From: Escherichia coli
GTDB taxonomy: Bacteria; Pseudomonadota; Gammaproteobacteria; Enterobacterales; Enterobacteriaceae
NCBI RefSeq assembly: GCF_001677475.2
Contig: NZ_CP015229.1
Length of the DNA stretch: 64,000 bases
Direction: 5' to 3' (one strand)
A program made the translations under genes and the position numbers. Positions 11,159 to 61,841 of this stretch are shown here, piece after piece. Each line of letters opens with the position of its first letter. Position 1 is the stretch's first letter. The notes below the pieces were generated by a model. It was given only the letters and a program-made list of their open reading frames with translations. It was not told where the DNA came from and searched no databases.

Positions 11159-11770
<612 letters not shown>

Positions 11771-12150: not shown

Positions 12151-12378
12151 CTATGATGAGCTGCCATTGAAGATGATTTGCCAATCAGTAAGATATTTTA
12201 ATGGATTAACATGCCGCACAAAATGGTTATAGGTGTTCATTCCAATAAGTGATGGAAAATTGAACCGGGTTATGTACATCATCTGTTCGGTAAGCCCCCT
12301 AAGAGCCAAATTAAGTGAAGTTAAACGAAGGCTGCCAGCTGTCACAGGAACGATGGCCTTTTTGTCAGGGCACTGCAT
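12151..12378 (-). CDS. ykgL: Small protein YkgL
   Basis: ORF track 75 aa MQCPDKKAIVPVTAGSLRLTSLNLALRG... Confidence 0.6.
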   Translation of the reverse strand: MQCPDKKAIVPVTAGSLRLTSLNLALRGLTEQMMYITRFNFPSLIGMNTYNHFVRHVNPLKYLTDWQIIFNGSSS

Positions 12379-14135: not shown

Positions 14136-14379
14136 TTAACGGAAACCAGTGAGTTCCTTTCGATGTCTGAATTTCCTTGGCGTGACATAGGTATATCCTG
14201 TAATTACTAAACCAATATTTTGTGAGCGACGTTTATAATATTCGAGTTCTTGCTCAGAGATGGTTCCATCAGGATTAGCTGACCAGGTCGTCATAGGAGC
14301 CATAACGATACGATTACATGGCTTTGTTTTTTTCTGTCAGCATAAAAGGAGGAAACAGTGATAAGTGTTTATTTGTCAT
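14136..14379 (-). pseudogene. Remnant of an OYE-family NADH:flavin oxidoreductase N-terminus (frameshifted, 3'-truncated)
   Basis: Two short ORFs in frames differing by 1 nt: MTNKHLSLFPPFMLTEKNKAM* then (C)NRIVMAPMTTWSANPDGTISEQELEYYKRRSQNIGLVITGYTYVTP..., resembling the NRIxMAPM...YY..RA..GLIISE N-terminal region of Old Yellow Enzyme-type reductases; similarity ends after about 65 residues. Confidence 0.45.
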
Positions 14380-14672
14380 GACAATACCTCAAATGTTTAT
14401 CTGATTTTGATGCGTATATTTTAACTGGTTAGTTGTTACCAGCTTTGGAACCAAGATTTTTGGCTTTGTTTTTATTTATAATTACTGTTAGTGCTTTTAT
14501 TGAATTTATGGTGGAGAAAAGAGTAAAAAAAGAAAGTTAATGATGTGTGTCAGAATATCGGTAAGAAGAATGACGCAATCGTGAGGATACGTTTATTCAT
14601 AATAAATCTCCTGAAAGTTTAGAATTATTTTCTATACAGCCAGATTATCATTGTTACTAATAATGTGGTTAA

Positions 14673-16616
<1,944 letters not shown>

Positions 16617-20100: not shown

Positions 20101-21419
20101 ATGCCGTTGCTCAGCCACTGGTGCTGAACGTTGCAGGTGACGCATCTAAGGCTGAGATTCGTGATATAACAGTGAAGGTTAATAACCAACTGGCTAATGG
20201 ACAGTCTGCTAACCAGATAACCCTGACCGTCGTGGACAGCTATGGTAACCCGTTGCAGGGGCAAGAAGTTACGCTGACTTTACCGCAGGGTGTGACCAGC
20301 AAGACGGGGAATACAGTAACAACCAATGCGGCAGGGAAAGTGGACATTGAGCTTATGTCAACGGTTGCGGGAGAACACAATATTTCCGCTTCGGTGAATG
20401 GTGCTCAGAAGACGGTCACGGTGAAATTCAACGCGGATGCCAGCACCGGTCAGGCAAACCTGCAGGTAGACGCCGCTGCTCAAAAAGTGGCAAACGGCAA
20501 AGATGCCTTTACGCTGACGGCGAACGTTGAGGATAAAAATGGTAACCCTGTTCCAGGGAGCCTGGTGACCTTTAATCTGCCCCGGGGTGTCAAGCCGCTT
20601 ACAGGCGATAATGTCTGGGTGAAAGCCAACGATGAGGGGAAAGCAGAGTTGCAGGTGGTTTCAGTGACTGCCGGAACGTATGAGATCACGGCATCGGCAG
20701 GGAATAACCAGCCTTCGAATACGCAGACTATAACGTTTGTGGCCGATAAGGCGACCGCAACCGTCTCCGGTATTGAGGTGATTGGCAACTATGCACTGGC
20801 GGATGGCAAAGCCAAACAGACGTATAAAGTTACGGTGACTGATGCCAATAACAACCTGTTGAAAGATAGCGAGGTGACGCTGACTGCCAGCCCGGCAAAT
20901 TTAGCTCTGGATCCCGATGGGACGGCGAAAACTAATGAGCAAGGGCAGGCTATTTTCACCGCCACGACCACTGTCGCAGCGAAATATACACTCACGGCGA
21001 AAGTGGAACAGGCCAACGGTCAGGAATCGACGAAAACTGCTGAATCTAAATTCGTCGCGGATGATAAAAACGCGGTGCTCGCCGCATCATCTGATGTGAC
21101 TTCTCTGGTGGCGGATGGGGTACAGACCGCAACAATGACGGTTACCCTGTTCTCGGCAAATAACCCTGTTGGGGGGAATGTGTGGGTCGACATTGAGGCT
21201 CCGGAAGGAGTGACGGAGAAGGATTATCAGTTCCTGCCGTCGAAAAATGACCATTTCGTGAGCGGGAAAATCACGCGTACATTTAGTACCAGCAAGCCTG
21301 GTGTCTATACATTCACATTTAACGCCCTGACCTATGGCGGGTACGAAATGAAGCCAGTGAAGGTGACCATTACCGCGGTGGATGCCGATACGGCAAAGGA
21401 CGAGGAGGCGATGAAGTAA
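17166..21419 (+). CDS. eaeH: Intimin/invasin-like inverse autotransporter adhesin EaeH (FdeC), full-length
   Basis: ORF track 1417 aa; N-terminal beta-barrel region followed by many Ig-like repeat segments; matches recalled EaeH/FdeC N-terminus. Confidence 0.85.
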   Translation: MSRYKTGHKQPRFRYSVLARCVAWANISVQVLFPLAVTFTPVMAARAQHAVQPRLSMENTTVTADNNVEKNVASFAANAGTFLSSQPDSDATRNFITGMATAKANQEIQEWLGKYGTARVKLNVDKDFSLKDSSLEMLYPIYDTPTNMLFTQGAIHRTDDRTQSNIGFGWRHFSGNDWMAGVNTFIDHDLSRSHTRIGVGAEYWRDYLKLSANGYIRASGWKKSPDIEDYQERPANGWDIRAEGYLPAWPQLGASLMYEQYYGDEVGLFGKDKRQKDPHAISAEVTYTPVPLLTLSAGHKQGKSGENDTRFGLEVNYRIGEPLAKQLDTDSIRERRVLAGSRYDLVERNNNIVLEYRKSEVIRIALPKRIAGKGGQTVSLGLVVSKATHGLKNVQWEAPSLLAAGGKITGQGNQWQVTLPAYQAGKDNYYAISAVAYDNKGNASKRVQTEVVITGAGMSAERTALTLDGQSRIQMLANGSEQKPLVLSLRDAEGQPVTGMKDQIKTELTFKPAGNIVTRTLKATKSQAKPTLGEFTETEAGVYQSVFTTGTQSGEATITVSVDGMSKTVTAELRATMMDVANSTLSANEPSGDVVADGQQAYTLTLTAVDSEGNPVTGEASRLRLVPQDTNGVTVGAISEIKPGVYSATVSSTRAGNVVVRAFSEQYQLGSLQQTLKFVAGPLDAAHSTIALNPDKPVVGGTVTAIWTAKDANDNPVTSLTPEAPSLAGAAAVGSTASGWTNNGDGTWTAQITLGSTAGELEVMPKLNGQDAAANAAKVTVVADALSSNQSKVSVAEDHVKAGESTTVTLIAKDAHGNAISGLSLSASLTGTASEGATVSSWTEKGDGSYVATLTTGGKTGELRVMPLFNGQPAATEAAQLTVIAGEMSSANSTLVADNKAPTVKTTTELTFTVKDAYGNPVTGLNPDAPVFSGAASTGSERPSAGNWTEKGNGVYVSTLTLGSAAGQLSVMPRVNGQNAVAQPLVLNVAGDASKAEIRDITVKVNNQLANGQSANQITLTVVDSYGNPLQGQEVTLTLPQGVTSKTGNTVTTNAAGKVDIELMSTVAGEHNISASVNGAQKTVTVKFNADASTGQANLQVDAAAQKVANGKDAFTLTANVEDKNGNPVPGSLVTFNLPRGVKPLTGDNVWVKANDEGKAELQVVSVTAGTYEITASAGNNQPSNTQTITFVADKATATVSGIEVIGNYALADGKAKQTYKVTVTDANNNLLKDSEVTLTASPANLALDPDGTAKTNEQGQAIFTATTTVAAKYTLTAKVEQANGQESTKTAESKFVADDKNAVLAASSDVTSLVADGVQTATMTVTLFSANNPVGGNVWVDIEAPEGVTEKDYQFLPSKNDHFVSGKITRTFSTSKPGVYTFTFNALTYGGYEMKPVKVTITAVDADTAKDEEAMK

Positions 21420-31409: not shown

Positions 31410-32075
31410 TTACTGCCCAGAGTTTTGTTGGTATTCATCTACCATTTTTTTGACAAGGCAAAACATTACAGAAATCACAATGCTTAGAAAAAATCCCAGA
31501 GCCAGGCAAATGGCAGCAGGGTATTTATTTTTTATTTCTGGTGAGCTTATAGTGACACAGCCATCACCGTTCGGATACAATGACCAGTTCCTGGTCAGGT
31601 ATATCATTTTTGTATAAAGCTCACTGTTAATTGCTGAAGGCGTTTGTATCTCATCGAGAACTTGCCTGCCATTATGGTATTCTGACGCATACCATTTGAT
31701 AATAGACGCATGCACGCGAGATATTTCCGCTTCAGCAGTTGGTAAATCGCTCTTATCTCCTGACCATTCCAGCTTTATTTCTCTGTTCTTGACATCTGGG
31801 CTGGTCTGAAAAAATGTAGTAATTCGCTGAATGACATCTTCAGTCATTGTGGTCTGACAGGCAAAGTTATTATTGCTATCACAGTTAACAAGTATGCCTG
31901 GTGTTGTCTGATTTATTTTAGCTGTAACTCACTTTTATATTATCTTTATTGATATACAGAAACAACAGCACCATTGCCATACAGATAGCTATAATAAAAA
32001 GGATAACACGAATCTTTTTCTTCAGATAAAATAAAATATCAATCAGATCGATATCCTGTTTGATTTGTTCATTCA
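31410..32075 (-). pseudogene. ykgH: ykgH-like membrane protein gene, apparently interrupted by two nearby 1-nt indels
   Basis: N-terminal 52-codon ORF (32075..31917, MNEQIKQDIDLIDILFYLKKKIRVILFIIAICMAMVLLFLYINKDNIKVSYS*) and the 145-aa ORF (31847..31410) are in the same frame but separated by 5 in-frame stops; the intervening 69 nt read in an adjacent frame give KINQTTPGILVNCDSNNNFA. Confidence 0.5.
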
Positions 32076-32272
32076 TAATATATCCAGAAAATGAAAACTG
32101 TCGCAGATAAGATTGTATTAATAGTCTGTATCAGGAATGTTCAGGGTAAATATCAGCAAAAAGCCAGCATCATGAATACTGGATATGAAGCATGAGAGTT
32201 ACCTCAATGTTCTATATAACGATTCGGTCCCCATACCTGGAACGGTAACTCTCAATCTGATAGGTTCCTGAG

Positions 32273-33961
32273 TCAGTTCAAATCACGACTCATTTTTTTC
32301 GCTCTTACTGGCATCCCATTTGCCACAAAATATCTTGCCGTGCTCCTCGGCAACGCTTCTTGCCCGCGAATCATATCCGCTATTTTCTCGCCAATCATAA
32401 TGGTCGTGGCGTTCAAATTGCCGGTGATAATCTGCGGCATAATTGACGCATCCACCACGCGCAGGCCTTCCAGCCCATGCACGCGGCCTTCGCCGTCAAC
32501 CACGGACATCTCGTCGTAGCCCATTTTGCAGGTACCGCACGGATGGAAGGCGGTTTCGGCGTGGTTACGCACGAACTCATCGAGCTGCTCATCCGTCTGG
32601 CATTCGACACCGGGGCTGATTTCGCGGCCACGGTATTGATCCAGCGCGGGTTGATGCATGATCTCGCGGGTGATGCGAATTGCGTCGCGGAACTCCTGCC
32701 AGTCCTGCTCGTGCGACATGTAGTTAAACAGAATCGCCGGATGCTGGTGCGGGGTGCGGGATTTAATCCGCACATGCCCACGGCTTGGCGAGCGCATCGA
32801 TCCGACGTGGCACTGGAAGCCGTGCTCTTTCACTGCATTCGAGCCGTTATAGTTAATCGCTACTGGCAGGAAATGGTACTGAATATTCGGCCACGCAAAT
32901 TCCTCTCGGCTGCGAATAAATCCGCCTGCTTCAAAGTGGTTGCTGGCACCAACGCCGGTGCCGCCAAATAGCCACTCCGCACCGATTTTCGGCTGATTCC
33001 ACCACTGCAGGGCAGGGTAGAGGGAAACCGGTTCTTTGCACTCATATTGCAGATACATCTCCAGGTGATCCTGAAGATTTTCGCCGACGCCGGGTAAATC
33101 ATGCACCAGCGGAATATCAAACTCCGCCAGCAGTTCAGCGCTACCCACGCCGGAACGTTGCAGGATCTGCGGAGAGGCGATCGCACCTGCACATAACAGC
33201 ACCTCTTTATTCGCTGTCGCGCGGGTTGAAATGGTGCTATCGCCTTCCAGCCACTCGACGCCCACCGCGCGTTTGCCGTCAAAAATGATGTGATCGGTCA
33301 TAGCGTGAGTACGAATGGTCAGGTTCGGGCGCGATTTGGCCTGATCGAGATAACCGCGCGCGGTACTGGCGCGACGACCCTGCGGCGTGACGGTGCGATC
33401 CATCGGGCCAAAACCTTCCTGCTGATAGCCGTTGAGATCGTCCGTGCGCGGGTAGCCTGCCTGCACACCCGCTTCAATCATCGCTTCAAACAGCGGATTG
33501 ACGCCGGGTTTGGAGGTGGTGACGCTCACCGGGCCATTGCCACCGTGATAGTCGTTTTCACCAATATCGCGCGTCTCGGCCTTGCGGTAGTAGGGCAGGC
33601 AGTCGAGATAACTCCAGTTCTCCAGACCGGGTTCTTTTGCCCAGTTATCGAGATCCAGCGCGTTACCACGGATGTAACACATGCCGTTGATCAGTGATGA
33701 CCCGCCAAGCCCCTTACCGCGTCCGCACTCCATGCGACGGTTGTTCATAAACGGTTCCGGTTCCGTCTCATAGGCCCAGTTATAGCGTTTACCCTGTAAC
33801 GGGAACGCCAGCGCGGCGGGCATCTGGGTGCGGAAGTCAAAACGATAATCCGGGCCGCCCGCTTCAAGCAGCAATACGGTCGTGTTGGGATCTTCAGTCA
33901 GACGTGTAGCGAGGACGTTGCCGGCAGAGCCGGCACCAATAATGATGTAGTCAAATTGCAA
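32273..33961 (-). CDS. betA: Choline dehydrogenase BetA
   Basis: ORF track frame 32273..34006; start assigned to TTG at 33961 ([18 protein letters not shown] Rossmann motif) with AGGAGG 5 nt upstream. Confidence 0.85.
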
Positions 33962-33974
33962 ATAAACCTCCTGG

Positions 33975-35450
33975 TTAGAATATGGACTGGAATTTAGCCA
34001 TCTCAACCTGGATGGACTTCACCTGGGTGTAACTTTGTAGCGTCATCACGCCGTTCTCGCGGCCAATACCGGAGTGTTTGTAGCCGCCAACGGGCATCTC
34101 TGCCGGGGATTCGCCCCAGGTGTTGATCCAGCAGATACCCGCCTCAAGCTGGTGGATAACGCGGTGTGCGCGGTTCAGGTCAGCCGTCACGATGCCCGCC
34201 GCCAGGCCGTAGTTGGTGTCGTTGGCGCGGCGAATCACTTCGTCTTCCGTTTCATATGTGAGGATGGACATCACCGGCCCGAAAATCTCTTCGCGCACAA
34301 TGGTCATTTCGTCGCTGCAATCGGTGAACACGGTCGGTGCAATCCATGCGCCGTTATCGAAGCCATCGCCTTTCAGTACATCGCCGCCGCACAGTACGCG
34401 CGCGCCTTCCTCTTTGCCTTTGGCGATATAGCGCAGCACGTTATCGCGATGCGGGAAGCTGACCAGCGGGCCGAAGTTAGTTTGCGGATCGAAAACGTCG
34501 CCCGCGCGAATGCGCTCAACGCGCGCCAGAATTTTCTGCTCAAATGCGGCTTTGCATTTCGCCGGAATAAACACGCGGGTGCCGTTGGTACACACCTGGC
34601 CGGAGCTGAAGAAGTTCGCCATCATGGCAATATCGGCGGCGAGATCGAGGTCCGCATCGTCGAAAACGATCAGCGGCGATTTACCGCCCAGCTCCATGGT
34701 CACTTCTTTCAGGGAGGAAGCCGCCGAGTTAGCCATCACTTTTTTGCCGCTGGCGACGCCGCCGGTAAACGACACTTTGGCAATGCCCGGATGCTCGGTC
34801 AGATACTGCCCGGTCTCCGCGCCCACGCCCTGCAACACGTTAAATACGCCGTCCGGCAGGCCCGCTTCGCTGTAAATTTCGGCCAGCTTTAACGCGGTAA
34901 GCGGGGTGACTTCGCTCGGTTTGAAAATCATTGCATTGCCTGCCGCCAGCGCCGGGGCGGATTTCCATAGGGCAATCTGGATCGGGTAGTTCCACGCGCC
35001 AATCCCCGCGACCACGCCGAGCGGTTCGCGGCGAGTGTAGACAAACGATGTCTCACGCAGGGGGATCTGGCTGCCCTCCAGCGCTGGAATCAGCCCCGCG
35101 TAATACTCCAGTACATCTGCGCCGGTAACGATATCGACGGTTGAGGTTTCTGAATATGCTTTTCCGGCGTCGAGCGTTTCCAGTTTTGCGAGTTCGTCAT
35201 TGCGTTCACGTAGAATATCAACGGCCCGACGCAGAATACGCGAGCGTTCCATAGCGGTCATCGCCGCCCAGATTTTTTGCCCCTGTTGGGCACTCTTCAC
35301 GGCGTGATCGACATCCTCGCGCCCGGCGGCCTGCACGGTCGCCAGCACGTTACCGTTGGCCGGGTTAATGGTCTCGAAGGTGCGACCGCTGGTGGCGGAG
35401 GTATAACCACCATGTATATAAAGCTGCTGTTCTGCCATTCGGGACATCAC
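33975..35450 (-). CDS. betB: Betaine aldehyde dehydrogenase BetB
   Basis: ORF track 491 aa [22 protein letters not shown]... Confidence 0.9.
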
Positions 35451-35460
35451 GTTTCCTCGG

Positions 35461-36048
35461 TTAATCGGTGGGTAAATGCTGAGTAATAAAGTGACGGGTC
35501 AGCGAGTGTGCGAGAGGTTTATCCAGCGCTTTGCCGCTCAGTGCCGCGCGCAGCCATAATCCGTCAATTAGCGCGGCAAGGCCGTAGCCCGCTTCCTGTG
35601 CCTGTTGACGTGGTAACTCGCGGCGAAATTCGCTCACCAGATTCGACAATAAGCGGCGGCTACTGACCTGCTGCAAGCGATAGAGCATCGGCTGATGCAT
35701 ACTGCTGGCCCAGAAGGCCAGCCAGGCTTTCATCGCCGCACTGCTCACCTGGGTTTCATCGAAGTTTCCACCAACAATCGCCTGTAATCGCAGCTCTGCA
35801 CTGCCCTGCGGAAGTGCATGTAATCGATTCAAAACCGCGTCACGCAGCTGACTGGTGATATCGCGCATGGTTGCTTCCAGCAGACCATTTTTGTCCCTGA
35901 AATAGTGGCTGATGATCCCCGTAGAAACGCCTGCACGGCGGGCGATCTGCGCGATCGTTGCATCGTGCATGCCCACTTCATTTATTGCTTCCAGCGTGGC
36001 GTCGATCAGTTGTCTGCGCCGGATCGACTGCATCCCCAATTTGGGCAT
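35461..36048 (-). CDS. betI: TetR-family repressor BetI
   Basis: ORF track frame 35461..36066; start at [26 protein letters not shown]. Confidence 0.85.
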
Positions 36049-36176
36049 TTTCGCCACTCCATTCATCAGCGTTGTTTATCTATTAAAGCGGTTATTGATT
36101 GGACGTTCAATATAAAATGTGTCTTAATTGTTACGAATTTGATTTTAAATGGTAACAATAACAGTGGGGATACTGG

Positions 36177-37841
36177 ATGTCAGACCTTTCACACAGCAGG
36201 GAAAAGGACAAAATCAATCCGGTGGTGTTTTACACTTCCGCCGGACTGATTTTGTTGTTTTCCCTGACAACGATCCTGTTTCGCGACTTCTCGGCCCTGT
36301 GGATTGGACGCACGCTGGACTGGGTCTCTAAAACCTTCGGTTGGTACTATCTGCTGGCGGCAACGCTCTATATTGTCTTTGTGGTCTGTATCGCTTGTTC
36401 GCGTTTTGGTTCGGTGAAGCTCGGGGCAGAACAATCAAAACCGGAATTCAGTCTGCTGAGTTGGGCGGCGATGCTGTTTGCTGCCGGGATCGGTATCGAC
36501 CTGATGTTCTTCTCCGTAGCCGAACCGGTAACGCAGTATATGCAGCCGCCGGAAGGCGCGGGTCAGACGATTGAGGCCGCGCGTCAGGCGATGGTCTGGA
36601 CGCTGTTTCACTACGGCTTAACCGGCTGGTCGATGTATGCGCTGATGGGCATGGCGCTCGGATACTTTAGCTATCGTTATAATTTGCCGCTCACCATCCG
36701 CTCAGCGCTGTACCCGATCTTCGGTAAACGGATTAACGGGCCGATAGGTCACTCAGTGGATATTGCAGCGGTGATCGGCACTATCTTCGGTATTGCCACT
36801 ACGCTCGGTATCGGTGTGGTGCAGCTTAACTATGGCTTGAGCGTACTGTTTGATATTCCTGATTCAATGACGGCGAAAGCGGCACTGATCGCCTTGTCGG
36901 TGATCATCGCAACGATCTCTGTCACCTCCGGTGTCGATAAGGGCATTCGTGTGTTATCGGAACTCAACGTTGCGCTGGCGCTGGGGCTGATCCTGTTCGT
37001 GCTGTTTATGGGCGACACCTCGTTCCTGCTTAATGCGCTGGTGCTGAACGTTGGCGACTATGTGAATCGCTTTATGGGAATGACGCTCAACAGTTTTGCC
37101 TTCGACCGTCCGGTTGAGTGGATGAATAACTGGACGCTCTTCTTCTGGGCATGGTGGGTGGCATGGTCGCCGTTTGTCGGCCTGTTCCTGGCGCGTATCT
37201 CGCGTGGGCGTACCATTCGCCAGTTCGTGCTGGGCACGTTGATTATTCCGTTTACCTTCACGCTGTTATGGCTCTCGGTGTTCGGCAATAGCGCGCTGTA
37301 TGAAATCATCCACGGCGGCGCGGCATTTGCCGAGGAAGCGATGGTCCATCCGGAGCGCGGCTTCTACAGCCTGCTGGCGCAGTATCCGGCGTTTACCTTT
37401 AGCGCCTCCGTCGCCACCATTACTGGCCTGCTGTTTTATGTGACCTCGGCGGACTCCGGGGCGCTGGTGCTGGGGAATTTCACCTCGCAGCTTAAAGATA
37501 TCAACAGCGACGCCCCCGGCTGGCTGCGCGTCTTCTGGTCGGTGGCGATTGGTCTGCTGACGCTTGGCATGCTGATGACCAACGGGATATCCGCGCTGCA
37601 AAACACCACGGTAATCATGGGGCTGCCGTTCAGCTTTGTGATTTTCTTCGTGATGGCGGGGTTGTATAAATCTCTGAAGGTAGAAGATTACCGCCGTGAA
37701 AGTGCCAACCGTGATACCGCGCCGCGACCGTTGGGGCTTCAGGATCGCCTGAGCTGGAAAAAACGTCTCTCGCGCCTGATGAATTATCCGGGCACGCGTT
37801 ACACTAAACAGCTACCGTGTTTAGTCAAGAAAATTATGTGA
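36177..37841 (+). pseudogene. betT: betT 5' fragment: codons 1-545 of the BCCT choline transporter, then 9 IS-encoded codons and a stop
   Basis: ORF track 554 aa ends ...LMNYPGTRYTKQ/LPCLVKKIM*; the remaining BetT C-terminus (MMETVCYPAMEEV...) is found 1.38 kb downstream in the same frame register. Confidence 0.85.
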
Positions 37842-37995
37842 TGTTTGAACATTCCATCTTCAGGAGAAATTTTCTCTGAGTTTTTATAAAAGAGCAGATG
37901 CTCAGTTAGATACCATGAAAGAAGGTAAAAGATACAAACATGTTGCTTCAGCATTGCTCCGGTGTTATTGCTTACCATGTTGTTTTATAATGATT

Positions 37996-38982
37996 TTATT
38001 GATTGTATTCAGCATCGAATGGTAACTGCGTTTTCAGCACACCATAGCACCAGTGCACAAGTTTTCGCATTAATGCTCCAATAGCACACATCTTTGACTT
38101 TCCCCTCTGGCATAACTTCGTATACATCTGTTTCATTACAGGGTTGAACCTCAGCCCACATAAAGCTGCAAGATAAAGTTTTGTTCTTATCTCTGGTGGT
38201 CCAATTTTAGATAATTTAGGTTTTCCCTTTACAGATGTGCCAGATCTCCTTTCTACCGGAACTACACCAAGGAATGCTGCTGCCTGCTCTGCTGATTCGA
38301 ATGAATGGCTTTTGAGTATCGCCAGCATATTTAATCCCAGCAGATAACCAACAGATTTTATTGATGTTAACAGTCTGAAATCCTGGTTTAGTTCCGGGTG
38401 AGTTTCAATATGTTCCTGGATCAGGACATCAAGATGTTCGATCTCATTGTTCAGCTCCTGAAGCATGTGTTCAATTGATGCCCTGACGGCATCAGGGCTG
38501 TCTGTAAAAACAGATTTTTCAAGTCTGTTTTTTTCTCTGGTGCTATCTGCAACAAGAGCGTCTCTGCGGCGTAAAAGAGCTCTAAGATACCGCACAGATT
38601 CCGGTGGTGGAGTCCATGCCTCAGGCTCTTTAAGGGAGCCATAACAAGCCAGCATCCAGGCATCGACTTTGTCATTCTTGGTCAGGATATTCATCCCTCT
38701 GGCAAATTCCCTTGTACGGTGAGGATTGGCTAAAGAAATTCTGGCGCCAGCAAAGTGAAGGCCATAAGCCAGCGGTTCATGATATACCCCAGTGGCTTCC
38801 ATGATGATATGAACTTCGCCCAGTTCACAGGATTGCTTCTTAAGCCACTCTGTCACGACTTTAGCCGCATCAGCGGTATTTTTTAGCTTACGAGTTTTGA
38901 TCCTCCCTTTGATGCCCTCCCGTAAGAGACATAGATCAAGAGTGTTTTTACTGACATCAATACCTAATTGATACATTGGCAT
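37996..38982 (-). CDS. IS110-family DEDD transposase/recombinase (328 aa from the ATG at 38982; ORF frame extends to 39057)
   Basis: ORF track 353 aa; start placed at MPMYQLGIDVSKNTLDL (typical IS110 N-terminus with the first catalytic Asp in GIDVSK) preceded by AGGAG; C-terminal ...RRSGTSVKGKPKLSKIGPPEIRTKLYLAAL... resembles the IS110 transposase C-terminal domain. Confidence 0.8.
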   Translation of the reverse strand: MPMYQLGIDVSKNTLDLCLLREGIKGRIKTRKLKNTADAAKVVTEWLKKQSCELGEVHIIMEATGVYHEPLAYGLHFAGARISLANPHRTREFARGMNILTKNDKVDAWMLACYGSLKEPEAWTPPPESVRYLRALLRRRDALVADSTREKNRLEKSVFTDSPDAVRASIEHMLQELNNEIEHLDVLIQEHIETHPELNQDFRLLTSIKSVGYLLGLNMLAILKSHSFESAEQAAAFLGVVPVERRSGTSVKGKPKLSKIGPPEIRTKLYLAALCGLRFNPVMKQMYTKLCQRGKSKMCAIGALMRKLVHWCYGVLKTQLPFDAEYNQ

Positions 38983-39188
38983 TTTTTCTCCTTTCACATA
39001 ACCATCACGCCAATTTGTCTTGTTCATGCAGAGTCTTAGCTCTTGGCAACCGTTCAATGTTAATGCTGGCGTGAAAGGTGAAGCAGAGGACTATAGCTGT
39101 TGACGAAGGTTATTACCTTAGATGATGGGGTAGGTTCTCTCCGCTTCATGCGATGGTAGCTAATCATCGCTCGTTGATTACATACAAG
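38983..39188 (-). ncRNA. Candidate bridge/seek-RNA coding region in the recombinase-upstream non-coding end of the IS110-family element
   Basis: About 206-bp non-coding end upstream of the recombinase; contains a 9-nt copy of the target right flank (AGATGATGG at 39120-39128 versus 39187-39195) and GGTAGCT (39155-39161), the reverse complement of the left junction AGCTACC (37810-37816); RNA boundaries and structure not determined. Confidence 0.3.
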
Positions 39189-39587
39189 ATGATGGAGACG
39201 GTCTGTTACCCGGCAATGGAAGAAGTGGCGCAGGAGCTGCGGTTGCGCGGCGCGTACGTGGAGCTAAAAAGCCTGCCGCCGGAAGAGGGACAACAGTTGG
39301 GGCATCTGGATTTGTTGGTGCATATGGGCGAAGAGCAAAACTTTGTCTATCAGATTTGGCCGCAGCAATATTCGGTGCCGGGCTTTACCTACCGCGCACG
39401 TAGCGGTAAATCGACCTACTACCGGCTGGAAACCTTCCTGTTAGAAGGCAGCCAGGGCAACGACCTGATGGACTACAGCAAAGAGCAGGTGATCACCGAT
39501 ATTCTCGACCAGTACGAGCGGCACCTTAACTTTATCCATCTCCATCGTGAAGCGCCGGGCCATAGCGTGATGTTCCCGGACGCGTGA
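39189..39587 (+). pseudogene. betT: betT 3' fragment: codons 546-677, the cytoplasmic C-terminal domain
   Basis: ORF track 39153..39587 translates ...MMETVCYPAMEEVAQELRLRGAYVELKS...HSVMFPDA; the first 12 codons of that ORF are IS-derived. Confidence 0.85.
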
Positions 39588-40159
39588 TTGTTATTGCATA
39601 AAACCGCGCCATGTCTGCATATGGCGCGGGAATCATTGACTCGCTGTAAAAAATTATGCATATATTATATATGATTGTCATGTCATATCCTGCAATTCCT
39701 CTTGTATCACTTCATGATTTTATATTTTATTAATTAACGATTTTATTTTGTATTAGCTGAATGGATTCAGTCCTATAGTGTTATATATTTATTAATAAGA
39801 CGATTCTTATATTTTGATACCTAATAAGAGTTACCGCTTTTATCGGCTGTATATTAAATGTATTCCTCTTGCTTTTGTTTATATTTTGAGTTGATTTGAG
39901 TTCCTGGATACATATAATGCGCAGGTATTAGAGACTGGGAGGAATGTAATGATAAAGTTAAGAGTGTTAACTTAAAATAAGTTTTAAGTAATAACTTGCT
40001 ATTTTATTACCCTCTGAACTACATACTCAGATATGTGGTTGCCAATGCTATGCAAAATTTTTGAATTTTTATATGCGATGAACAGTAACCGGAATGGCAT
40101 TTAATGCGTTGCTGTTTATGCAATCTTAGTTTTATTTGGATGTATTGCTGGAGATTGTG

Positions 40160-43100
40160 ATGAATAAAATATATCGGCTAAAGTGGAACAGGTCCCGTAA
40201 CTGTTGGAGCGTCTGCTCTGAGCTGGGGAGCAGAGTAAAAGGAAAAAAGTCCCGGGCTGTTTTAATTAGCGCGATAAGTTTATATTCATCTCTGGTATTC
40301 GCCGATGATGTCATCGTAAACCAGGATAAAACTATTGATTTTGGCAAAGAGAACCAGAGCATCGATTACCGTATTACGGTGACTGACAATGCCAATCTGG
40401 TAATCAATGCGACAGATACTTCCCGTCCGCGTCTGACTCTCGCTTCTGGTGGTGGGTTGGATATTACCGGAGGAAAGGTAACAATCAATGGCCCACTTAA
40501 CTTTTTGCTGAAAGGTACGGGGTTCCTGAATGTCTCCAATGCTGGCAGCGAGTTATATGCTGATGATTTGTATGAGTCAAACTCAGGCATGAGACATGAT
40601 CGCGGCTATTTTAACGTCTCCAACGGCGGTAAAATCCATGTTAAGGGCACCAGCCGTCTGACCTATTTGCAGGGAAATGTCAGTGGTGAAGGCAGCCAGG
40701 TAAATTCTAAAACCTTCTTTATGGGCGTTTACGGCAGTTACGGTGGTAATCAGTACCTGTCAGTTAATAACGGCGGTGAAGTTAATGCCAGTGAGAAAAT
40801 TAGCCTGGGCTATTATGATCAAGTCTCCGATACAACACTTGCTGTTTCGGAAGGTGGTAAAATTTCTGCGCCGACTATTAGTTTAAGCACCAACTCTGAG
40901 TTAGCGTTAGGTGCACAGGAAGGAAGCGCTGCGAAGGCGGCAGGGATTATTGATGCCGAAAAAATTGAGTTTGTGTGGGCAAAGACATCCGATAAGAAAA
41001 TCACCTTAAACCACACGGATAAAAACGCGACTATTTCCGCGGATATTGTCAGTGGCAGCGAGGGCCTGGGCTATATCAATGCGCTCAATGGCACGACTTA
41101 CTTAACCGGGGATAACTCCGCCTTTAGCGGTAAAGTCAAAATTGAGCAAAATGGCGCTTTAGGGATCACCCAAAATATAGGTACAGCAGAGATCACCAAC
41201 CGCGGGAAATTACACCTGAAGGCTGAGGATAGCATGACCTTTGCCAATAAGATCTCCGGCAACGGTACAATAAGTATCGACAGTGGGACGGTGGAGTTGA
41301 CCGGCAATAACTATGCATTCTACGGATATATTGATGTTGCTTCCGATGCTGTAGCTGTTATTTCTGAAGACAAGAACATCGGCCGTGCAGAACTGGATGT
41401 TGATGGCAAACTGCAAATCAATGCCAATAAAGATTGGGTATTTGATAACGATCTTGAAGGTAGAGGCATTGTTGAAATAAACATGGGGAATCACGAATTC
41501 TCCTTCGATGAGTTTGCTTATACAGACTGGTTCCAGGGTTCACTGGCGTTCCAGAACACGACATTTAACCTGGAAAAGAATGCTGAGTTTCTTCAGAGAG
41601 GCGGGATCACTGCGGGTCAGGGAAGTCAGGTAACAGTAGGTAAGGGCGCTCATTCTATTAGCTCTCTGGGATTCTCCGGCGGAACCGTTGATTTTGGTGC
41701 CCTTGCAGCTGGTGCACAGATGACAGAAGGGACAGTCAACATTAGTAAAACGCTGGATTTGCGCGGCGAGGGTGTGATTCAGGTTTCTGACAGTGACGTT
41801 GTCCGCTCAGTATCTCGTGATATTGACTCTGCGTTATCGCTCACTGAAGTCGATGATGGTAACAGCACCATTAAGTTGGTTGATGCGCAAGGTGCGGAAG
41901 TTCTGGGCGATGCGGGCAATCTGCAATTGCAGGATAAAAATGGGCAAATCCTCTCCAGCAGCGCCCAACGTGATATTCAGCAGAATGGGCAAAAAGCGGC
42001 CGTCGGCACTTACGACTATCGTCTGACGAGTGGGGTAAACAATGACGGTCTGTATATCGGTTACGGCCTGACCCAGCTTGATTTACACGCTACCGACAGT
42101 GATGCCCTGGTGCTGAGCTCTAACGGTAAAAGCGAGAATGCCGCCGATCTCAGCGCAAAGATTACCGGCAGTGGTGACCTGGCATTCAGCAGCCAGAAGG
42201 GTCAGACCGTATCGCTTTCTAACAAAGACAACGACTATACCGGTGTTACCGATCTGCGCAGTGGGACGCTTTTGTTGAATAACGATAACGTGTTGGGTCA
42301 TACCCATGAACTGCGTCTGGCGGCAGAGACTGAACTGGATATGAATGGTTACAGCCAGATCGTGGGCACGCTCAATGGCAGCGCCGATTCACTGCTGAGC
42401 TTGAACGGCGGCAGTCTGACGGTTACCAACGGGGGCACTTCAACCGGTTCGTTAACGGGGAGCGGAGAGCTGAATATTCAGGGCGGCACGCTGGACATCG
42501 CGGGCGATAACAGCAACCTGACGGCGAATGTGAACATTGCTAATTCGGCTAATGTCCTGGTAAGTCATGCGCAGGGATTGGGTAGCGCAAACGTTGAGAA
42601 CAACGGTACCCTGGCGTTGAATAATAGCGCTGAAAAAAGAGCGGCTGCGTCTGTGAATTACACCCTGGGCGGCAATCTGACCAACAACGGTACGCTGATG
42701 ACCGGAATGTCAGGACAGCAAGCTGGCAATGTGTTAGTGGTGAAGGGGAACTACCACGGTAATAACGGTCAACTAGTAATGAATACGGTACTGAATGGCG
42801 ATGACTCAGTAACCGATAAATTGGTTGTCGAGGGCGATACTAGCGGCACGACTGCCGTTACGGTGAATAACGCTGGCGGTACAGGTGCGAAAACCCTTAA
42901 CGGTATCGAACTTATCCATGTAGATGGTAAGTCTGAGGGCGAATTTGTTCAGGCTGGGCGTATCGTTGCGGGGGCGTATGACTACACTCTCGCGCGTGGA
43001 CAAGGGGCAAATAGTGGTAACTGGTATCTGACCAGCGGCAGTGATTCTCCTGAACTGCAGCCGGAGCCAGACCCGATGCCGAATCCGGAGCCAAACCCGA

Positions 43101-44149
43101 CACCGAATCCGACACCAGAGCCGACGCCAGAGCCAACGCCTGTTCCTGACCAGACTCTGGATAATGACCTGCGCCCGGAGGCTGGTGGTTACATCGCGAA
43201 CCTTGCGGCAGCCAACACAATGTTAACCTCCCGACTGCATGAACGTCTGGGGAGCACATACTATACCGATCTGGTCACGGGTGAGCAGAAACAAACCACC
43301 ATGTGGATGCGTCATGAAGGGGGTCACAACAAATGGCGTGATGCAAGTGGCCAGTTGAAAACCCAAAGCAATCGCTATGTTCTGCAACTGGGGGGCGATA
43401 TCGCGCAGTGGAGTATAAGTGGCAACGACCGCTGGCATCTGGGGGTCATGGCTGGTTACGGTAACAGTGACAGCAAGACTATCTCATCGCGCACCGGTTA
43501 TCGAACTAAAGCAAGCGTGAATGGTTACAGCACGGGGTTATATGCGACCTGGTATGCGGATGATGAGTCACATAACGGGGCGTATCTCGACAGTTGGGCG
43601 CAGTACAGCTGGTTTGATAACACAGTGAAAGGGGATGACTTACAAAGTGAATCCTATAAATCAAAAGGATTTACCGCTTCACTGGAAGCTGGATACAAAC
43701 ACAAATTAGCTGAATTTAATGGCAGCCAGGGAACGCGTAATGAATGGTATGTTCAGCCGCAAGCACAGGTTACCTGGATGGGAGTCAAAGCCGATAAGCA
43801 CCGCGAAAGCAACGGAACCCTCGTTCATAGCAACGGTGATGGCAATGTTCAAACCCGACTTGGCGTAAAAACCTGGCTGAATAGCCACCATAAAATGGAT
43901 GACGGTAAATCCCGCGAGTTCCAGCCGTTTGTAGAAGTGAACTGGCTACATAACAGTAAGGATTTCAGCATCAGTATGGATGGCGTGTCCGTCACTCAGG
44001 ATGGAGCCCGAAATATTGCTGAGATAAAAACCGGGGTGGAAGGACAGCTAAATGCCAACCTGAATGTCTGGGGGAATGTGGGCGTTCAGGTTGCCGATAG
44101 GGGATATAATGACACCTCTGCAATGGTTGGCATTAAGTGGCAATTCTGA
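40160..44149 (+). CDS. ehaA: AIDA-I/EhaA-type classical autotransporter adhesin (about 1329 aa)
   Basis: ORF track frame 40136..44149; extended signal peptide MNKIYRLKWNRSRNCWSVCSELGSRV; long passenger; Pro-rich linker PEPDPMPNPEPNPTPNPTPEPTPEPTPVP; C-terminal beta-barrel ending ...VGIKWQF; position between betT and pdeL matches the recalled ehaA locus of O157-type strains. Confidence 0.75.
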   Translation: MNKIYRLKWNRSRNCWSVCSELGSRVKGKKSRAVLISAISLYSSLVFADDVIVNQDKTIDFGKENQSIDYRITVTDNANLVINATDTSRPRLTLASGGGLDITGGKVTINGPLNFLLKGTGFLNVSNAGSELYADDLYESNSGMRHDRGYFNVSNGGKIHVKGTSRLTYLQGNVSGEGSQVNSKTFFMGVYGSYGGNQYLSVNNGGEVNASEKISLGYYDQVSDTTLAVSEGGKISAPTISLSTNSELALGAQEGSAAKAAGIIDAEKIEFVWAKTSDKKITLNHTDKNATISADIVSGSEGLGYINALNGTTYLTGDNSAFSGKVKIEQNGALGITQNIGTAEITNRGKLHLKAEDSMTFANKISGNGTISIDSGTVELTGNNYAFYGYIDVASDAVAVISEDKNIGRAELDVDGKLQINANKDWVFDNDLEGRGIVEINMGNHEFSFDEFAYTDWFQGSLAFQNTTFNLEKNAEFLQRGGITAGQGSQVTVGKGAHSISSLGFSGGTVDFGALAAGAQMTEGTVNISKTLDLRGEGVIQVSDSDVVRSVSRDIDSALSLTEVDDGNSTIKLVDAQGAEVLGDAGNLQLQDKNGQILSSSAQRDIQQNGQKAAVGTYDYRLTSGVNNDGLYIGYGLTQLDLHATDSDALVLSSNGKSENAADLSAKITGSGDLAFSSQKGQTVSLSNKDNDYTGVTDLRSGTLLLNNDNVLGHTHELRLAAETELDMNGYSQIVGTLNGSADSLLSLNGGSLTVTNGGTSTGSLTGSGELNIQGGTLDIAGDNSNLTANVNIANSANVLVSHAQGLGSANVENNGTLALNNSAEKRAAASVNYTLGGNLTNNGTLMTGMSGQQAGNVLVVKGNYHGNNGQLVMNTVLNGDDSVTDKLVVEGDTSGTTAVTVNNAGGTGAKTLNGIELIHVDGKSEGEFVQAGRIVAGAYDYTLARGQGANSGNWYLTSGSDSPELQPEPDPMPNPEPNPTPNPTPEPTPEPTPVPDQTLDNDLRPEAGGYIANLAAANTMLTSRLHERLGSTYYTDLVTGEQKQTTMWMRHEGGHNKWRDASGQLKTQSNRYVLQLGGDIAQWSISGNDRWHLGVMAGYGNSDSKTISSRTGYRTKASVNGYSTGLYATWYADDESHNGAYLDSWAQYSWFDNTVKGDDLQSESYKSKGFTASLEAGYKHKLAEFNGSQGTRNEWYVQPQAQVTWMGVKADKHRESNGTLVHSNGDGNVQTRLGVKTWLNSHHKMDDGKSREFQPFVEVNWLHNSKDFSISMDGVSVTQDGARNIAEIKTGVEGQLNANLNVWGNVGVQVADRGYNDTSAMVGIKWQF

Positions 44150-44281
44150 TCTGAATAATGAGTAAAAGGAGAGAGAGCCGAACGGGAGATAATTCGGCTC
44201 TCTGTGTCATTTTCTTGCAGCCAGCTTTATCAGTCAGAGTGAAGACTCGCAGATTTAGCTGGCGCACAAGATTTAATCAAG

Positions 44282-45379
44282 GTGTGTTCAATGGCTTCGC
44301 ATGATTTGAGTGTTTTTTTGGAAGAGTTCGGGGCAACGGTGAATTTGACGTTGCCTGGTATCGTGTCCGAAAAAGAACGGCTTTTACTCAAGCTGCTAAT
44401 GGAGGGAATGTCGGTTACAGAAATCTCACAGTACAGAAATCGCAGTGCAAAGACAATTTCACATCAAAAGAAGCAGCTGTATGAAAAACTAGGCATCCAG
44501 AGTGATATTACCTTCTGGCGGGATATCTTTTTTCAATATCATCCGCAAATCAGCAGTGGCACGGGAAATAAAAATAATTTTTATATCCCTGATAACCGTT
44601 GTCACCATATAGTCACGCCTGAAGCCATCAGTCTGGCGTTGGAAAACCACGAATTCAAACCGTGGATCCAACCGGTTTTCTGCGCGCAGACTGGGGTACT
44701 GACGGGCTGTGAGGTGCTTGTCCGCTGGGAACATCCACAAACGGGAATTATCCCACCGGATCAGTTTATTCCTCTGGCGGAGTCATCTGGTCTTATCGTC
44801 ATAATGACTCGCCAGTTGATGAAACAGACTGCGGATATTCTGATGCCGGTAAAACATTTGCTGCCGGACAATTTCCATATTGGCATCAACGTCTCGGCGG
44901 GTTGTTTTTTGGCTGCGGGATTTGAAAAAGAGTGTCTGAACCTGGTTAAGAAATTAGGTAACGATAAAATCAAACTGGTTCTCGAGCTAACGGAACGTAA
45001 CCCTATTCCGGTAACGCCAGAAGCCAGAGCGATATTTGACAGCCTTCATCAGCACAACATTACCTTTGCGCTGGATGACTTTGGTACGGGTTATGCGACC
45101 TATCGTTACTTGCAGGCGTTTCCGGTCGATTTTATTAAGATCGATAAGTCATTTGTGCAAATGGCGAGCGTGGACGAAATATCCGGTCATATTGTGGACA
45201 ATATTGTCGAACTGGCGCGTAAGCCTGGTCTGAGTATCGTGGCGGAAGGGGTAGAAACCCAGGAGCAGGCGGATTTAATGATCGGCAAAGGCGTTCACTT
45301 TTTGCAGGGCTATTTGTACTCTCCGCCAGTACCGGGTAATAAATTTATCTCTGAATGGGTAATGAAAGCAGGTGGTTGA
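44282..45379 (+). CDS. pdeL: c-di-GMP phosphodiesterase PdeL (LuxR-type HTH + EAL domain)
   Basis: ORF track 365 aa; HTH ...ERLLLKLLMEGMSVTEISQYRNRSAKTISHQKKQLYEKLG and EAL-domain region ...LVLELTERNPIP... Confidence 0.85.
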   Translation: MCSMASHDLSVFLEEFGATVNLTLPGIVSEKERLLLKLLMEGMSVTEISQYRNRSAKTISHQKKQLYEKLGIQSDITFWRDIFFQYHPQISSGTGNKNNFYIPDNRCHHIVTPEAISLALENHEFKPWIQPVFCAQTGVLTGCEVLVRWEHPQTGIIPPDQFIPLAESSGLIVIMTRQLMKQTADILMPVKHLLPDNFHIGINVSAGCFLAAGFEKECLNLVKKLGNDKIKLVLELTERNPIPVTPEARAIFDSLHQHNITFALDDFGTGYATYRYLQAFPVDFIKIDKSFVQMASVDEISGHIVDNIVELARKPGLSIVAEGVETQEQADLMIGKGVHFLQGYLYSPPVPGNKFISEWVMKAGG

Positions 45380-59733: not shown

Positions 59734-60783
59734 ATGAAGATCAAAGCTGTTGGTGCATATTCCGCTAAACAACCACTTGAACCGATGGATATCACCCGGC
59801 GTGAACCGGGACCGCATGATGTCAAAATCGAAATCGCTTACTGTGGCGTCTGCCATTCCGATATCCACCAGGTCCGTTCCGAGTGGGCGGGGACGGTTTA
59901 TCCCTGCGTGCCGGGCCATGAAATTGTAGGGCGCGTGGTAGCTGTTGGTGATCAGGTAGAAAAATATGCGCCGGGCGATCTGGTTGGTGTCGGCTGCATT
60001 GTCGATAGTTGTAAACATTGCGAAGAGTGTGAAGACGGGCTGGAAAACTACTGTGATCACATGACCGGCACCTATAACTCGCCGACGCCGGACGAACCGG
60101 GCCATACTCTGGGCGGCTACTCACAACAGATCGTCGTTCATGAGCGATATGTTCTGCGTATTCGTCACCCGCAAGAGCAGCTGGCGGCGGTGGCTCCTTT
60201 GTTGTGTGCAGGGATCACCACATACTCGCCGCTACGTCACTGGCAGGCCGGGCCGGGTAAAAAAGTGGGCGTGGTCGGCATCGGCGGTCTGGGACATATG
60301 GGGATTAAGCTGGCCCACGCGATGGGGGCGCATGTGGTGGCATTTACCACTTCTGAGGCAAAACGCGAAGCGGCAAAAGCCCTGGGGGCCGATGAAGTTG
60401 TTAACTCACGCAATGCCGATGAGATGGCGGCTCATCTCAAGAGTTTCGATTTCATTTTGAATACAGTAGCTGCGCCACATAATCTCGACGATTTTACCAC
60501 CTTGCTGAAGCGTGATGGCACCATGACGCTGGTTGGTGCGCCTGCGACACCGCATAAATCACCGGAAGTTTTCAACCTGATCATGAAACGCCGTGCGATA
60601 GCCGGTTCTATGATTGGCGGCATTCCAGAAACACAGGAGATGCTCGATTTTTGCGCCGAACATGGCATCGTGGCTGATATAGAGATGATTCGGGTCGATC
60701 AAATTAATGAAGCCTATGAGCGAATGCTGCGTGGTGATGTGAAATATCGTTTTGTTATCGATAATCGCACACTAACAGACTGA
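59734..60783 (+). CDS. yahK: Zn-dependent NADPH aldehyde reductase YahK
   Basis: ORF track 349 aa; GVCHSD zinc motif and GIGGLGH NAD(P)-binding motif. Confidence 0.9.
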   Translation: MKIKAVGAYSAKQPLEPMDITRREPGPHDVKIEIAYCGVCHSDIHQVRSEWAGTVYPCVPGHEIVGRVVAVGDQVEKYAPGDLVGVGCIVDSCKHCEECEDGLENYCDHMTGTYNSPTPDEPGHTLGGYSQQIVVHERYVLRIRHPQEQLAAVAPLLCAGITTYSPLRHWQAGPGKKVGVVGIGGLGHMGIKLAHAMGAHVVAFTTSEAKREAAKALGADEVVNSRNADEMAAHLKSFDFILNTVAAPHNLDDFTTLLKRDGTMTLVGAPATPHKSPEVFNLIMKRRAIAGSMIGGIPETQEMLDFCAEHGIVADIEMIRVDQINEAYERMLRGDVKYRFVIDNRTLTD

Positions 60784-61025
60784 AAAAATTAATAAATATC
60801 CTGTGGTTTAACATATTAATTTCGCTCTCCACTTAACTTTTTAGTTAAGGAGAGCGAAATAATATCAAAGTAGCAGTAAAACCTATAACGTAAATTCAAA
60901 TTGTTAAATTAACTCCCTCCAGGACACAATACTTCACACGTTAGTTATGAGCGATTTCTGATAGTGCTTGGTTTAATCAGAGCTTTATTATCTGCGACGT
61001 TTATTTTTATTTAAGAGAGATCGCG

Positions 61026-61841
61026 ATGATATCATTAAAAGCTCCGCACAATAATTTGATGCCATATACGCAACAAAGCATACTTAATACGGTTAAAAAC
61101 AATCAGTTACCAGAGGATATCAAAAGCTCCCTGGTTTCCTGTGTCGATATATTCAAGGTTTTGATTAAACAATATTATGATTATCCTTATGATTGTCGTG
61201 ATGATTTAGTCGATGATGACAAACTCATTCATCTCATGGCTGCCGTGCGAGACTGTGAGTGGTCAGACGATAACGCACTCACCATAAATGTGCAGTTTAA
61301 TGATTTCCCTGGGTTTTATGACTGGATGGATTACCCTGATCACCCGGTTAAGTTTGTTTTTCGCATACTTGAAAATCAAAAAGGGACAGTTTGGGTATAT
61401 GACCAGGATGATGCGTTTCTTGATATTAAAGCAAATGTGCAGGCTGGACGCTTTACCGGGCTTAAGAAATTAGTGCAGTTTATCGATTCAGTGCGAACAG
61501 ATTGCAAATGTATTCTTCTTGAACACCATATGCCTTTGCTGAGACTTTTCCCTAAAGGGAAAGAGTGTATGCATGTGGAAAAATGGCTTCGCGAAATGTC
61601 GTCTATTCCGGAGACCGACGCACCCATTAAGCAGGCGCTTGCGCATGGATTATTATTACACTTAAAAAATATCTACCCTGTTTTTCCTGAATCACTGGTG
61701 AGGTTATTGCTCTCTGTTCTGGACGTAAAAACATACAGAGATGATGCGCGATTAAATCAATGGATATCTAATAGAGTGCAGGAATTAGGTGACAGATATT
61801 ATCCTGTAAATAAGCACGTTAAAATCCGCTACACTCTTTAG
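61026..61841 (+). CDS. yahL: Uncharacterised protein YahL
   Basis: ORF track 271 aa; synteny. Confidence 0.7.
   Translation: MISLKAPHNNLMPYTQQSILNTVKNNQLPEDIKSSLVSCVDIFKVLIKQYYDYPYDCRDDLVDDDKLIHLMAAVRDCEWSDDNALTINVQFNDFPGFYDWMDYPDHPVKFVFRILENQKGTVWVYDQDDAFLDIKANVQAGRFTGLKKLVQFIDSVRTDCKCILLEHHMPLLRLFPKGKECMHVEKWLREMSSIPETDAPIKQALAHGLLLHLKNIYPVFPESLVRLLLSVLDVKTYRDDARLNQWISNRVQELGDRYYPVNKHVKIRYTL

Follow-up and report, generated by a model that had tools for sequence, protein, structure and literature searches.

The Locus

The stretch analyzed here, 64,000 nt of Escherichia coli contig NZ_CP015229.1 (assembly GCF_001677475.2) and referred to below as the window, carries between betT and pdeL the autotransporter gene ehaA, preceded by a long, strongly A/T-rich leader. 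E. coli K-12 has no ehaA at this site, and its pdeL is transcribed from a promoter of its own. The sequence comparison presented below indicates that the leader of ehaA is a diverged ortholog of that K-12 promoter region. The features concerned are the following:

39588–40159, plus strand: A/T-rich leader, comprising the ehaA regulatory region and 5′ untranslated region (UTR); 572 bp, 30.9% GC.
39604–39629, no strand: GC-rich hairpin distal to betT, where the 40 nt in common with K-12 end; left border of O-island 15.
39756–39772, plus strand: Cra (FruR) box GCTGAATGGATTCAGTC, the same 17-mer as the experimentally bound Cra box of K-12 pdeL, GCTGAATGGATTCAG.
39794–39811, no strand: PdeL-box-type palindrome AATAAG-ACGATT-CTTATA, to be compared with AATAAG-N6-CTTATT of the K-12 site CIB.
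39891–39918, plus strand: sigma70-type promoter TTGATT-16-TATAAT, apparent ortholog of the K-12 pdeL promoter TTGATC-16-TATAAT.
39925–40159, plus strand: presumed ehaA 5′ UTR of about 235 nt, placed from the position of the promoter.
40160–44149, plus strand: ehaA coding sequence (CDS), 1329 aa, intact, according to the list of open reading frames (ORFs), Pfam and database identity.
44172–44203, plus strand: hairpin with a stem of 11–12 bp, 22 nt past the ehaA stop codon; poor U tract, candidate weak terminator or 3′ stabiliser.
44291–45379, plus strand: pdeL, encoding a LuxR-type helix-turn-helix (HTH) and an EAL domain, 141 nt downstream of ehaA.

In the ORF list ehaA runs from a TTG (40136–44149, 1337 aa); the ATG at 40160, with GGAG 7 nt upstream of it, yields the 1329 aa given in the first-pass annotation and agrees with the RefSeq ehaA starts of strains C4, Sakai, and ARS-C301. 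That annotation also placed the gene correctly between betT, which stops at 39587, and pdeL, which starts at 44291, although it overlooked the insertion sequence that splits betT (see below). Its description of the product as an EhaA-like autotransporter is borne out by an amino acid identity of 96.7% to ECs_0362 of O157 Sakai, with signal peptide and autochaperone 100% identical, and of 97.3% to EhaA of C4. NCBI records of the identical protein (ANO87507.1 among them) carry the name "autotransporter adhesin EhaA [Escherichia coli]" and come from about 40 contigs, and its UniRef name is also EhaA. The ORF is thus ehaA, a known and catalogued type Va adhesin of the AIDA-I type, present here as an intact and mildly mosaic allele.

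The Leader Resembles the pdeL Promoter of K-12

The leader had been reported as much more A/T-rich than its flanks, which is correct, as betT has 55–56% GC and the ehaA CDS 49.5% (45% in its 5′ third). The part of the leader that is not shared with K-12 (39628–40159) has 29.7% GC compared to a window mean of 49.4%. Among 532-bp segments taken over the whole 64 kb (mean 49.3% GC, standard deviation 6.5) only 0.06% are as low, and the lowest of them (28.8%) lies inside the leader. The coding sequence does not deviate from the window mean, and the compositional anomaly is restricted to non-coding DNA. At an identity of at least 90% the leader is present in 1399–1401 of 5426 complete E. coli genomes.

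The pdeL (yahA) promoter of K-12 is activated by Cra and PdeL, inhibited by cyclic di-GMP (c-di-GMP), and derepressed in an hns mutant. We mapped its sites through the oligonucleotide table of bioRxiv 10.1101/2021.10.01.462762. In the K-12 locus (L001) the Cra box and the site called CDB lie at 5871–5900 and the CIB, which reads TTCAATAAG-N6-CTTATTTAA in the oligonucleotide table, at 5674–5698. The K-12 CDB mutants change CTTAAT, and the fragment bound by RNA polymerase has the 3′ end CATATAATGCGCC, the same block as found at the promoter of the window. When window and K-12 are placed side by side, GCTGAATGGATTCAGTC and CATATAATGCGC are common to both.

Nine loci were compared, of which those of the window, Sakai, C4, Escherichia whittamii, and Escherichia albertii are of the ehaA type and those of K-12, an avian pathogenic E. 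coli strain of group B2, Escherichia sp. E1V33, and strain SCPM-O-B-8794 of the K-12 type. The -10 block was found in all nine and the Cra box in all eight that cover its position, the E. albertii contig ending just short of it. The distance from Cra box to -10 is 155–158 nt over all loci (155 nt in the window vs. 158 nt in K-12). In an alignment of seven sequences from both haplotypes, where the background identity between haplotypes is 20–55%, the Cra box accounts for an invariant run of 15 nt, TATAATGCGC for one of 10 nt, and AGTTGAT, in the -35 region, for one of 7 nt, and a further run measures 6 nt; the longest invariant run in 10,000 column shuffles was at most 9 nt. A search of the window for the Cra box, allowing up to two mismatches, returned this single match with 0.16 expected. 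The pattern AATAAG-N6-CTTAT likewise occurs once in the window (39794–39810; 0.02 expected), once in each ehaA-type leader, including that of E. whittamii, and, in fully palindromic form and at the CIB position, once in each K-12-type region; in 51 loci there was no occurrence outside these leaders and pdeL intergenic regions.

Cra box, palindrome, and -35/-10 block are conserved over both haplotypes and four Escherichia species, and the module that contains them (39740–39930) is found with at least 90% identity in approximately 1400 complete genomes, being unannotated among the matches listed. Within the ehaA haplotype and E. whittamii the sequence around Cra box and -35/-10 block has diverged by 18–23%, and the invariance of the two elements in spite of this argues for ongoing selection. 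The number of sigma70-like sites in the leader (4) is that expected from shuffled sequence (4.2), and only the conserved one was retained. It would place the ehaA transcription start site near 39925, ahead of a 5′ UTR whose 3′ part is 92% identical to that of E. whittamii. A second promoter at a repeated CATTTAATGCG (40098) was considered and rejected, as its -35 is poor and it is not conserved in E. whittamii. An invertible switch, such as those of UpaE and fim, was also rejected: the leader contains only short inverted repeats at chance level and the window has no recombinase gene nearby. A search of Rfam with 37700–44400 (E up to 1) gave no RNA family, and no known riboswitch or small RNA was found in the leader.

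The likeness to the K-12 pdeL promoter thus consists of an identical Cra box, the -35/-10 block with its discriminator, a single AATAAG-N6-CTTAT palindrome, and A/T-richness (33% GC in the K-12 region vs. 30% in the window leader). There are also clear differences. The first gene downstream is pdeL in K-12 and ehaA in the window; the palindrome is located about 200 nt upstream in K-12 and between Cra box and promoter in the window; the CDB half-site of the window is degraded, yahV is absent, and the remainder is essentially unalignable.

Two lines of reasoning make silencing of ehaA by H-NS plausible, i.e., the extreme A/T-richness of the leader and the repression by H-NS of the K-12 promoter that appears to be its ortholog. 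Among the autotransporter genes of E. coli, upaC and ehaG/upaG are examples of repression by H-NS; like ehaA they encode surface adhesins, have a long A/T-rich upstream region, and are poorly expressed in the laboratory, and they differ from it in that the CDS of ehaA is itself not A/T-rich. In the open literature we found no H-NS data on ehaA, nor, within an incomplete coverage of that literature, any paper tying ehaA to H-NS, Cra, pdeL, or yahA. The proposed link of ehaA to a Cra/PdeL promoter appears to be unreported in searchable papers.

Two Arrangements Between betT and pdeL

The site had been described as empty in K-12. It lacks ehaA, as stated, and is nevertheless occupied: betT and pdeL are separated there by 874 bp that contain yahV and the pdeL promoter. 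Homology between window and K-12 stops at the GC-rich hairpin, 40 nt past the betT stop codon, and restarts 14 nt before the pdeL ATG, these 14 nt being all that the ehaA-type strains share with K-12 directly upstream of that codon. The non-homologous segment in between amounts to 820 bp in K-12 (33% GC) and 4648 bp in the window (39628–44275). With default blastn (E 1e-3) the leader has no similarity to K-12 past the first 40 nt; with short words and without dust filtering two collinear matches appear, and with E. whittamii or E1V33 as intermediates extended collinear matches of 60–71% are obtained. Among the 5426 complete E. coli genomes, 1385 have the ehaA arrangement and 3651 that of K-12.

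In K-12 the stop codon of yahV (L001:5803–5877) lies within the Cra box. The ehaA-type leaders hold no equivalent (39734–39760 in the window), the frame being 7–8 codons long and without a start codon, and yahV is therefore haplotype-specific.

Scanning one genome per species with a PdeL query, we found full-length PdeL orthologs in Escherichia only. E. whittamii has the genes in the same order, with 82% identity in the leader, 90% in ehaA, 86% in the spacer, and 94% in pdeL; its bet operon is gone, and the last approximately 30 nt of betT together with the GC-rich hairpin remain upstream (L007:2934–3330). The E. albertii type strain retains promoter and 5′ UTR, three fragments of ehaA (CDS nt 1069–1189, 3121–3355, and 3645–3990; 78–80% identity), the spacer, and pdeL. 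In this strain, NBRC 107761 (L009:1–1185), the fragments add up to about 700 bp and are flanked by an intact promoter of the pdeL type and by pdeL, an organization that looks like a naturally occurring intermediate of the arrangements with and without ehaA. A published survey reported ehaA homologs in all or most of the E. albertii strains examined. K-12-type regions of 72–75% identity are present in two further Escherichia genomes; in E1V33 and SCPM-O-B-8794 betIBA-betT is absent and ykgEFG-like genes adjoin the pdeL region (L008, L010).

The ehaA locus in several species and K-12-type regions in two other Escherichia together indicate that both arrangements are old. As ehaA occupies the same locus in three species with a divergence similar to that of its neighbours, the comparison favours an ancestral ehaA, repeatedly lost or decayed, over a recently acquired island.

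ehaA and pdeL May Be Transcribed Together

In comparisons of E. coli with E. whittamii and E. albertii, the hairpin between ehaA and pdeL keeps its stem and differs in its loop. Its U tract begins only 6 nt past the stem, which makes it a poor intrinsic terminator. In an RNAalifold analysis of the ehaA-pdeL spacer from four sequences, three compensatory pairs were found, a number too small to support a structured RNA. Scanning positions 43700–44400 revealed no sigma70-like promoter. Taken together with the poor terminator and the spacing of 141 nt, this makes co-transcription of ehaA and pdeL plausible.

In the ehaA-type strains the K-12 set of CIB, Cra box, CDB, promoter, and 328-nt 5′ UTR (L001:5538–6357) is not adjacent to pdeL (44150–44290 in the window). 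The HTH of PdeL is conserved in the window strain, K60 included. Of the 24 differences from K-12 PdeL, 23 fall in aa 1–37 and 84–114 (codons 1–114 of pdeL correspond to 44291–44650), while HTH core and EAL domain are near-identical to those of K-12; this N-terminal clustering suggests that the haplotype boundary decays inside pdeL.

The EhaA Protein and Its Allele

The extended signal peptide and C-terminal barrel that had been recognized in the translation are confirmed by Pfam, and the Pro-rich linker, first placed at 43060–43150, is contained in a somewhat longer Pro-rich stretch. Along ehaA the following parts were distinguished:

40160–40273, plus strand: extended signal peptide region (ESPR), aa 1–38; Pfam PF13018, E 6.6e-10.
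42674–42991, plus strand: autochaperone AC_1, aa 839–944; Pfam PF18883, E 3.8e-28.
43043–43186, plus strand: Pro-rich PEPT-type linker, aa 962–1009; Pfam analysis.
43301–44080, plus strand: 12-stranded beta-barrel translocator, aa 1048–1307; Pfam PF03797, E 3.8e-46.
43035–43622, plus strand: mosaic patch over linker, alpha-helix, and first barrel strands; about 590 bp, from allele comparison.

Cleavage of the signal peptide, read by eye, is likely to occur after VFA at aa 56. The protein would be exported by Sec through its extended signal peptide, the C-terminal barrel would insert into the outer membrane, and the passenger would be displayed on the cell surface. Of the beta-helical, repetitive passenger expected for this class, the sequence shows only degenerate 31-nt repeats that encode G-T-L-x-L-T-G-x-N-like units, and there was no match to a Pfam passenger repeat. 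The autochaperone matches the IcsA autochaperone structures 3ML3 and 5KE1, the barrel scores 417.7 bits with TIGR01414, and barrel plus linker have the AIDA-I barrel 4MEE as closest solved structure (E 9e-90). NCBIfam holds no EhaA-specific model, and apart from the generic barrel domain all its matches were below cut-off. EhaA shares with AIDA-I the ESPR, the autochaperone, a Pro-rich or alpha-helical linker, and the PF03797 barrel. It differs in scoring 336 bits against an NCBIfam AIDA-I cut-off of 1200, in a passenger unrelated by sequence, and in having no glycosyltransferase gene (aah) adjoining it.

For the O157:H7 allele, and for this allele only, EhaA is reported to make cells aggregate, form biofilm, and adhere to bovine rectal cells (Wells 2008, as cited in PMC8565820). 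The O157:H7 protein (Z0402/ECs_0362; O-island 15) has the same betT-ehaA-pdeL locus and the same architecture as that of the window. It is 1327 aa long rather than 1329, its betT does not carry the IS110 element found in the window, and it is only 81–86% identical in the linker/first-barrel patch. Over this patch (43035–43622) the window allele has 81–86% identity to the alleles of Sakai and E. whittamii, which are themselves 92–97% alike over most of it, and the linker is longer than that of other alleles by an inserted PE (2 aa). The window holds a mosaic allele here. A donor was not found, the best match being 86% among complete RefSeq E. coli genomes and 74% for a plasmid autotransporter.

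betT and Neighbouring Regions

In the window betT, whose 5′ fragment contains the BCCT Pfam domain, is interrupted by an insertion sequence (IS):

39187–39587, plus strand: betT 3′ fragment, 98.4% identical to the 3′ end of K-12 betT.
37812–39186: IS110-family element splitting betT; transposase at 37996–38979/39057, minus strand; NCBIfam 213 bits vs. a cut-off of 140.

The element is of the "RNA-guided transposase" type and has the betT junctions ...AAACAG and ATGATGG. Strain ARS-C301 carries a 99.8% identical element at the same betT position within flanks that are only about 96.5% identical. AH19B041 has a 97% copy there, and plasmid copies share about 9 nt of flank per side. These copies suggest that insertion into this one site in betT is sequence-directed and has occurred repeatedly. 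A non-coding stretch of approximately 130–200 nt 5′ of the transposase, the place where a bridge RNA would be expected, had no Rfam match. At least one genome with exactly the EhaA of the window has an intact betT (locus L005).

In a comparison with four E. coli strains from different backgrounds, betA/betB (32000–36000) reach only 92–95% identity, against 97–100% for betT, the leader, and the greater part of ehaA (36000–44500). The locus is a recombination mosaic, in which the lineage of the window is unusually divergent. Compared to ARS-C301, the window lacks at 31687–32184 a ykgH-betA segment of about 6 kb (L004:1–6486) with hyxB, hyxA, hyxR, and an ipbA (fimX/hbiF) invertase. Further A/T-rich stretches, with 31.6–33.1% GC, are located at 11671–12202, 14151–14682, and 60701–61232. 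There are several adhesin loci in the same window, among them EcpD (5587–7230, minus strand) and an inverse autotransporter of 1417 aa (17166–21419) similar to intimin/IatC.

Competing Explanations

The reading that we prefer combines these observations as follows. The adhesin gene ehaA would be transcribed from a promoter that is activated by Cra, responsive to PdeL and hence sensitive to c-di-GMP, and probably repressed by H-NS, and read-through of the weak hairpin would give at least some co-transcription of pdeL. The arrangement would be old in Escherichia, and in K-12, which has no ehaA, the same promoter would be joined directly to pdeL. As a joint model we regard this as reasonably likely, although not secure in every part. 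It is probable that ehaA is part of the PdeL circuit, and that it has long resided at its locus and is not a recent import.

Several observations weigh against this. First, the CDB half-site CTTAAT next to the K-12 Cra box reads CCTATA in the window (3/6), and the palindrome lies 38 nt downstream of the start of the Cra box where that of K-12 lies 197 nt upstream of it; with the CDB degraded and the palindrome shifted, control by PdeL may differ or be absent. Second, the right half-site of the window palindrome matches in 5 of 6 positions (CTTATA), and the CIB palindrome used for comparison was itself deduced from oligonucleotide positions and figure legends rather than from a printed consensus. 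Third, TCGATAAATT, which we take to be the high-affinity H-NS motif, had no match in the leader with up to two mismatches (1.6 expected). Fourth, termination at the hairpin past ehaA might be efficient, and pdeL might be served by a promoter of non-canonical type. Finally, since two other Escherichia have K-12-type regions (72–75%), the change may have gone in either direction, by loss or by gain of ehaA.

The strongest competitor holds that the Cra/PdeL module is a relic, that ehaA is transcribed from a promoter nearer to its start, and pdeL from one in the 3′ end of ehaA or in the 141-nt spacer, the two genes being independently regulated. A 5′ UTR of about 235 nt would indeed be long, a second -10-like copy (CATTTAATGCG) does exist at 40098, the hairpin past ehaA is stable and conserved, and the CDB half-site is degraded. 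A relic is however not expected to keep Cra box and -35/-10 block invariant while 18–23% of the surrounding sequence changes; furthermore, the 40098 element lacks a usable -35 and has no conserved counterpart in E. whittamii, and there is no promoter-like site at 43700–44400. We therefore find this explanation doubtful.

Horizontal acquisition, which the first-pass annotation had read from the base composition, is in our view unlikely. According to this explanation ehaA and its leader form an imported island, O-island 15, silenced by H-NS and unrelated to resident regulation. It is consistent with the patchy distribution (1385 of 5426 genomes), with the classification of the locus in O157 as a 4643-bp single-ORF island, OI-15 (PMC8565820), and with a leader of 29.7% GC, and the 97–100% identity of ehaA to strains that have only 92–95% identity in betA/betB hints at spread by recombination. 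On the other hand the GC content of the CDS equals the window mean, the locus has no tRNA, integrase, or border repeats, and ehaA is located at the same place in E. whittamii, with remnants in E. albertii. Cra box, palindrome, and promoter are shared by the leader and the K-12 region and were judged collinear. The missing H-NS motif matches and the lack of published H-NS data on ehaA among the papers found count against silenced foreign DNA as well. The leader is better explained as a resident promoter region of the Cra/PdeL type than as imported silenced DNA.

That the likeness between leader and K-12 pdeL promoter arose by chance or convergence in A/T-rich DNA, as the failure of default blastn past the first 40 nt and the background identity of 20–55% could be taken to mean, is very improbable given an exact Cra box match of 15–17 nt that has no second occurrence in the window, a 12-nt -10 block at a spacing of 155–158 nt in all loci, the unique palindrome, and the 60–71% collinear matches obtained via E. 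whittamii or E1V33.

Implications

O-island 15 has been treated as an acquisition specific to O157, while the comparison of loci suggests an old Escherichia gene that was lost by many lineages, K-12 included. To our knowledge the bistable c-di-GMP switch of PdeL has been dissected only in K-12. It is tempting to speculate that in about a quarter of E. coli, including O157:H7, and in E. whittamii this 'digital' pdeL promoter fronts ehaA with pdeL in the distal position, that adhesin and phosphodiesterase are switched on together by Cra and PdeL when c-di-GMP is low, and that K-12 is the derived state, having lost ehaA. We offer this proposal tentatively, as a possibility that falls somewhat short of an even chance. 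If it is true, the expression of a biofilm adhesin would be coupled to that of a c-di-GMP-degrading trigger enzyme in enterohaemorrhagic E. coli and in many commensals. The results on pdeL regulation in K-12 would then not be directly transferable to strains carrying ehaA, and the conclusions on autoregulation reached in K-12 may not apply to O157.

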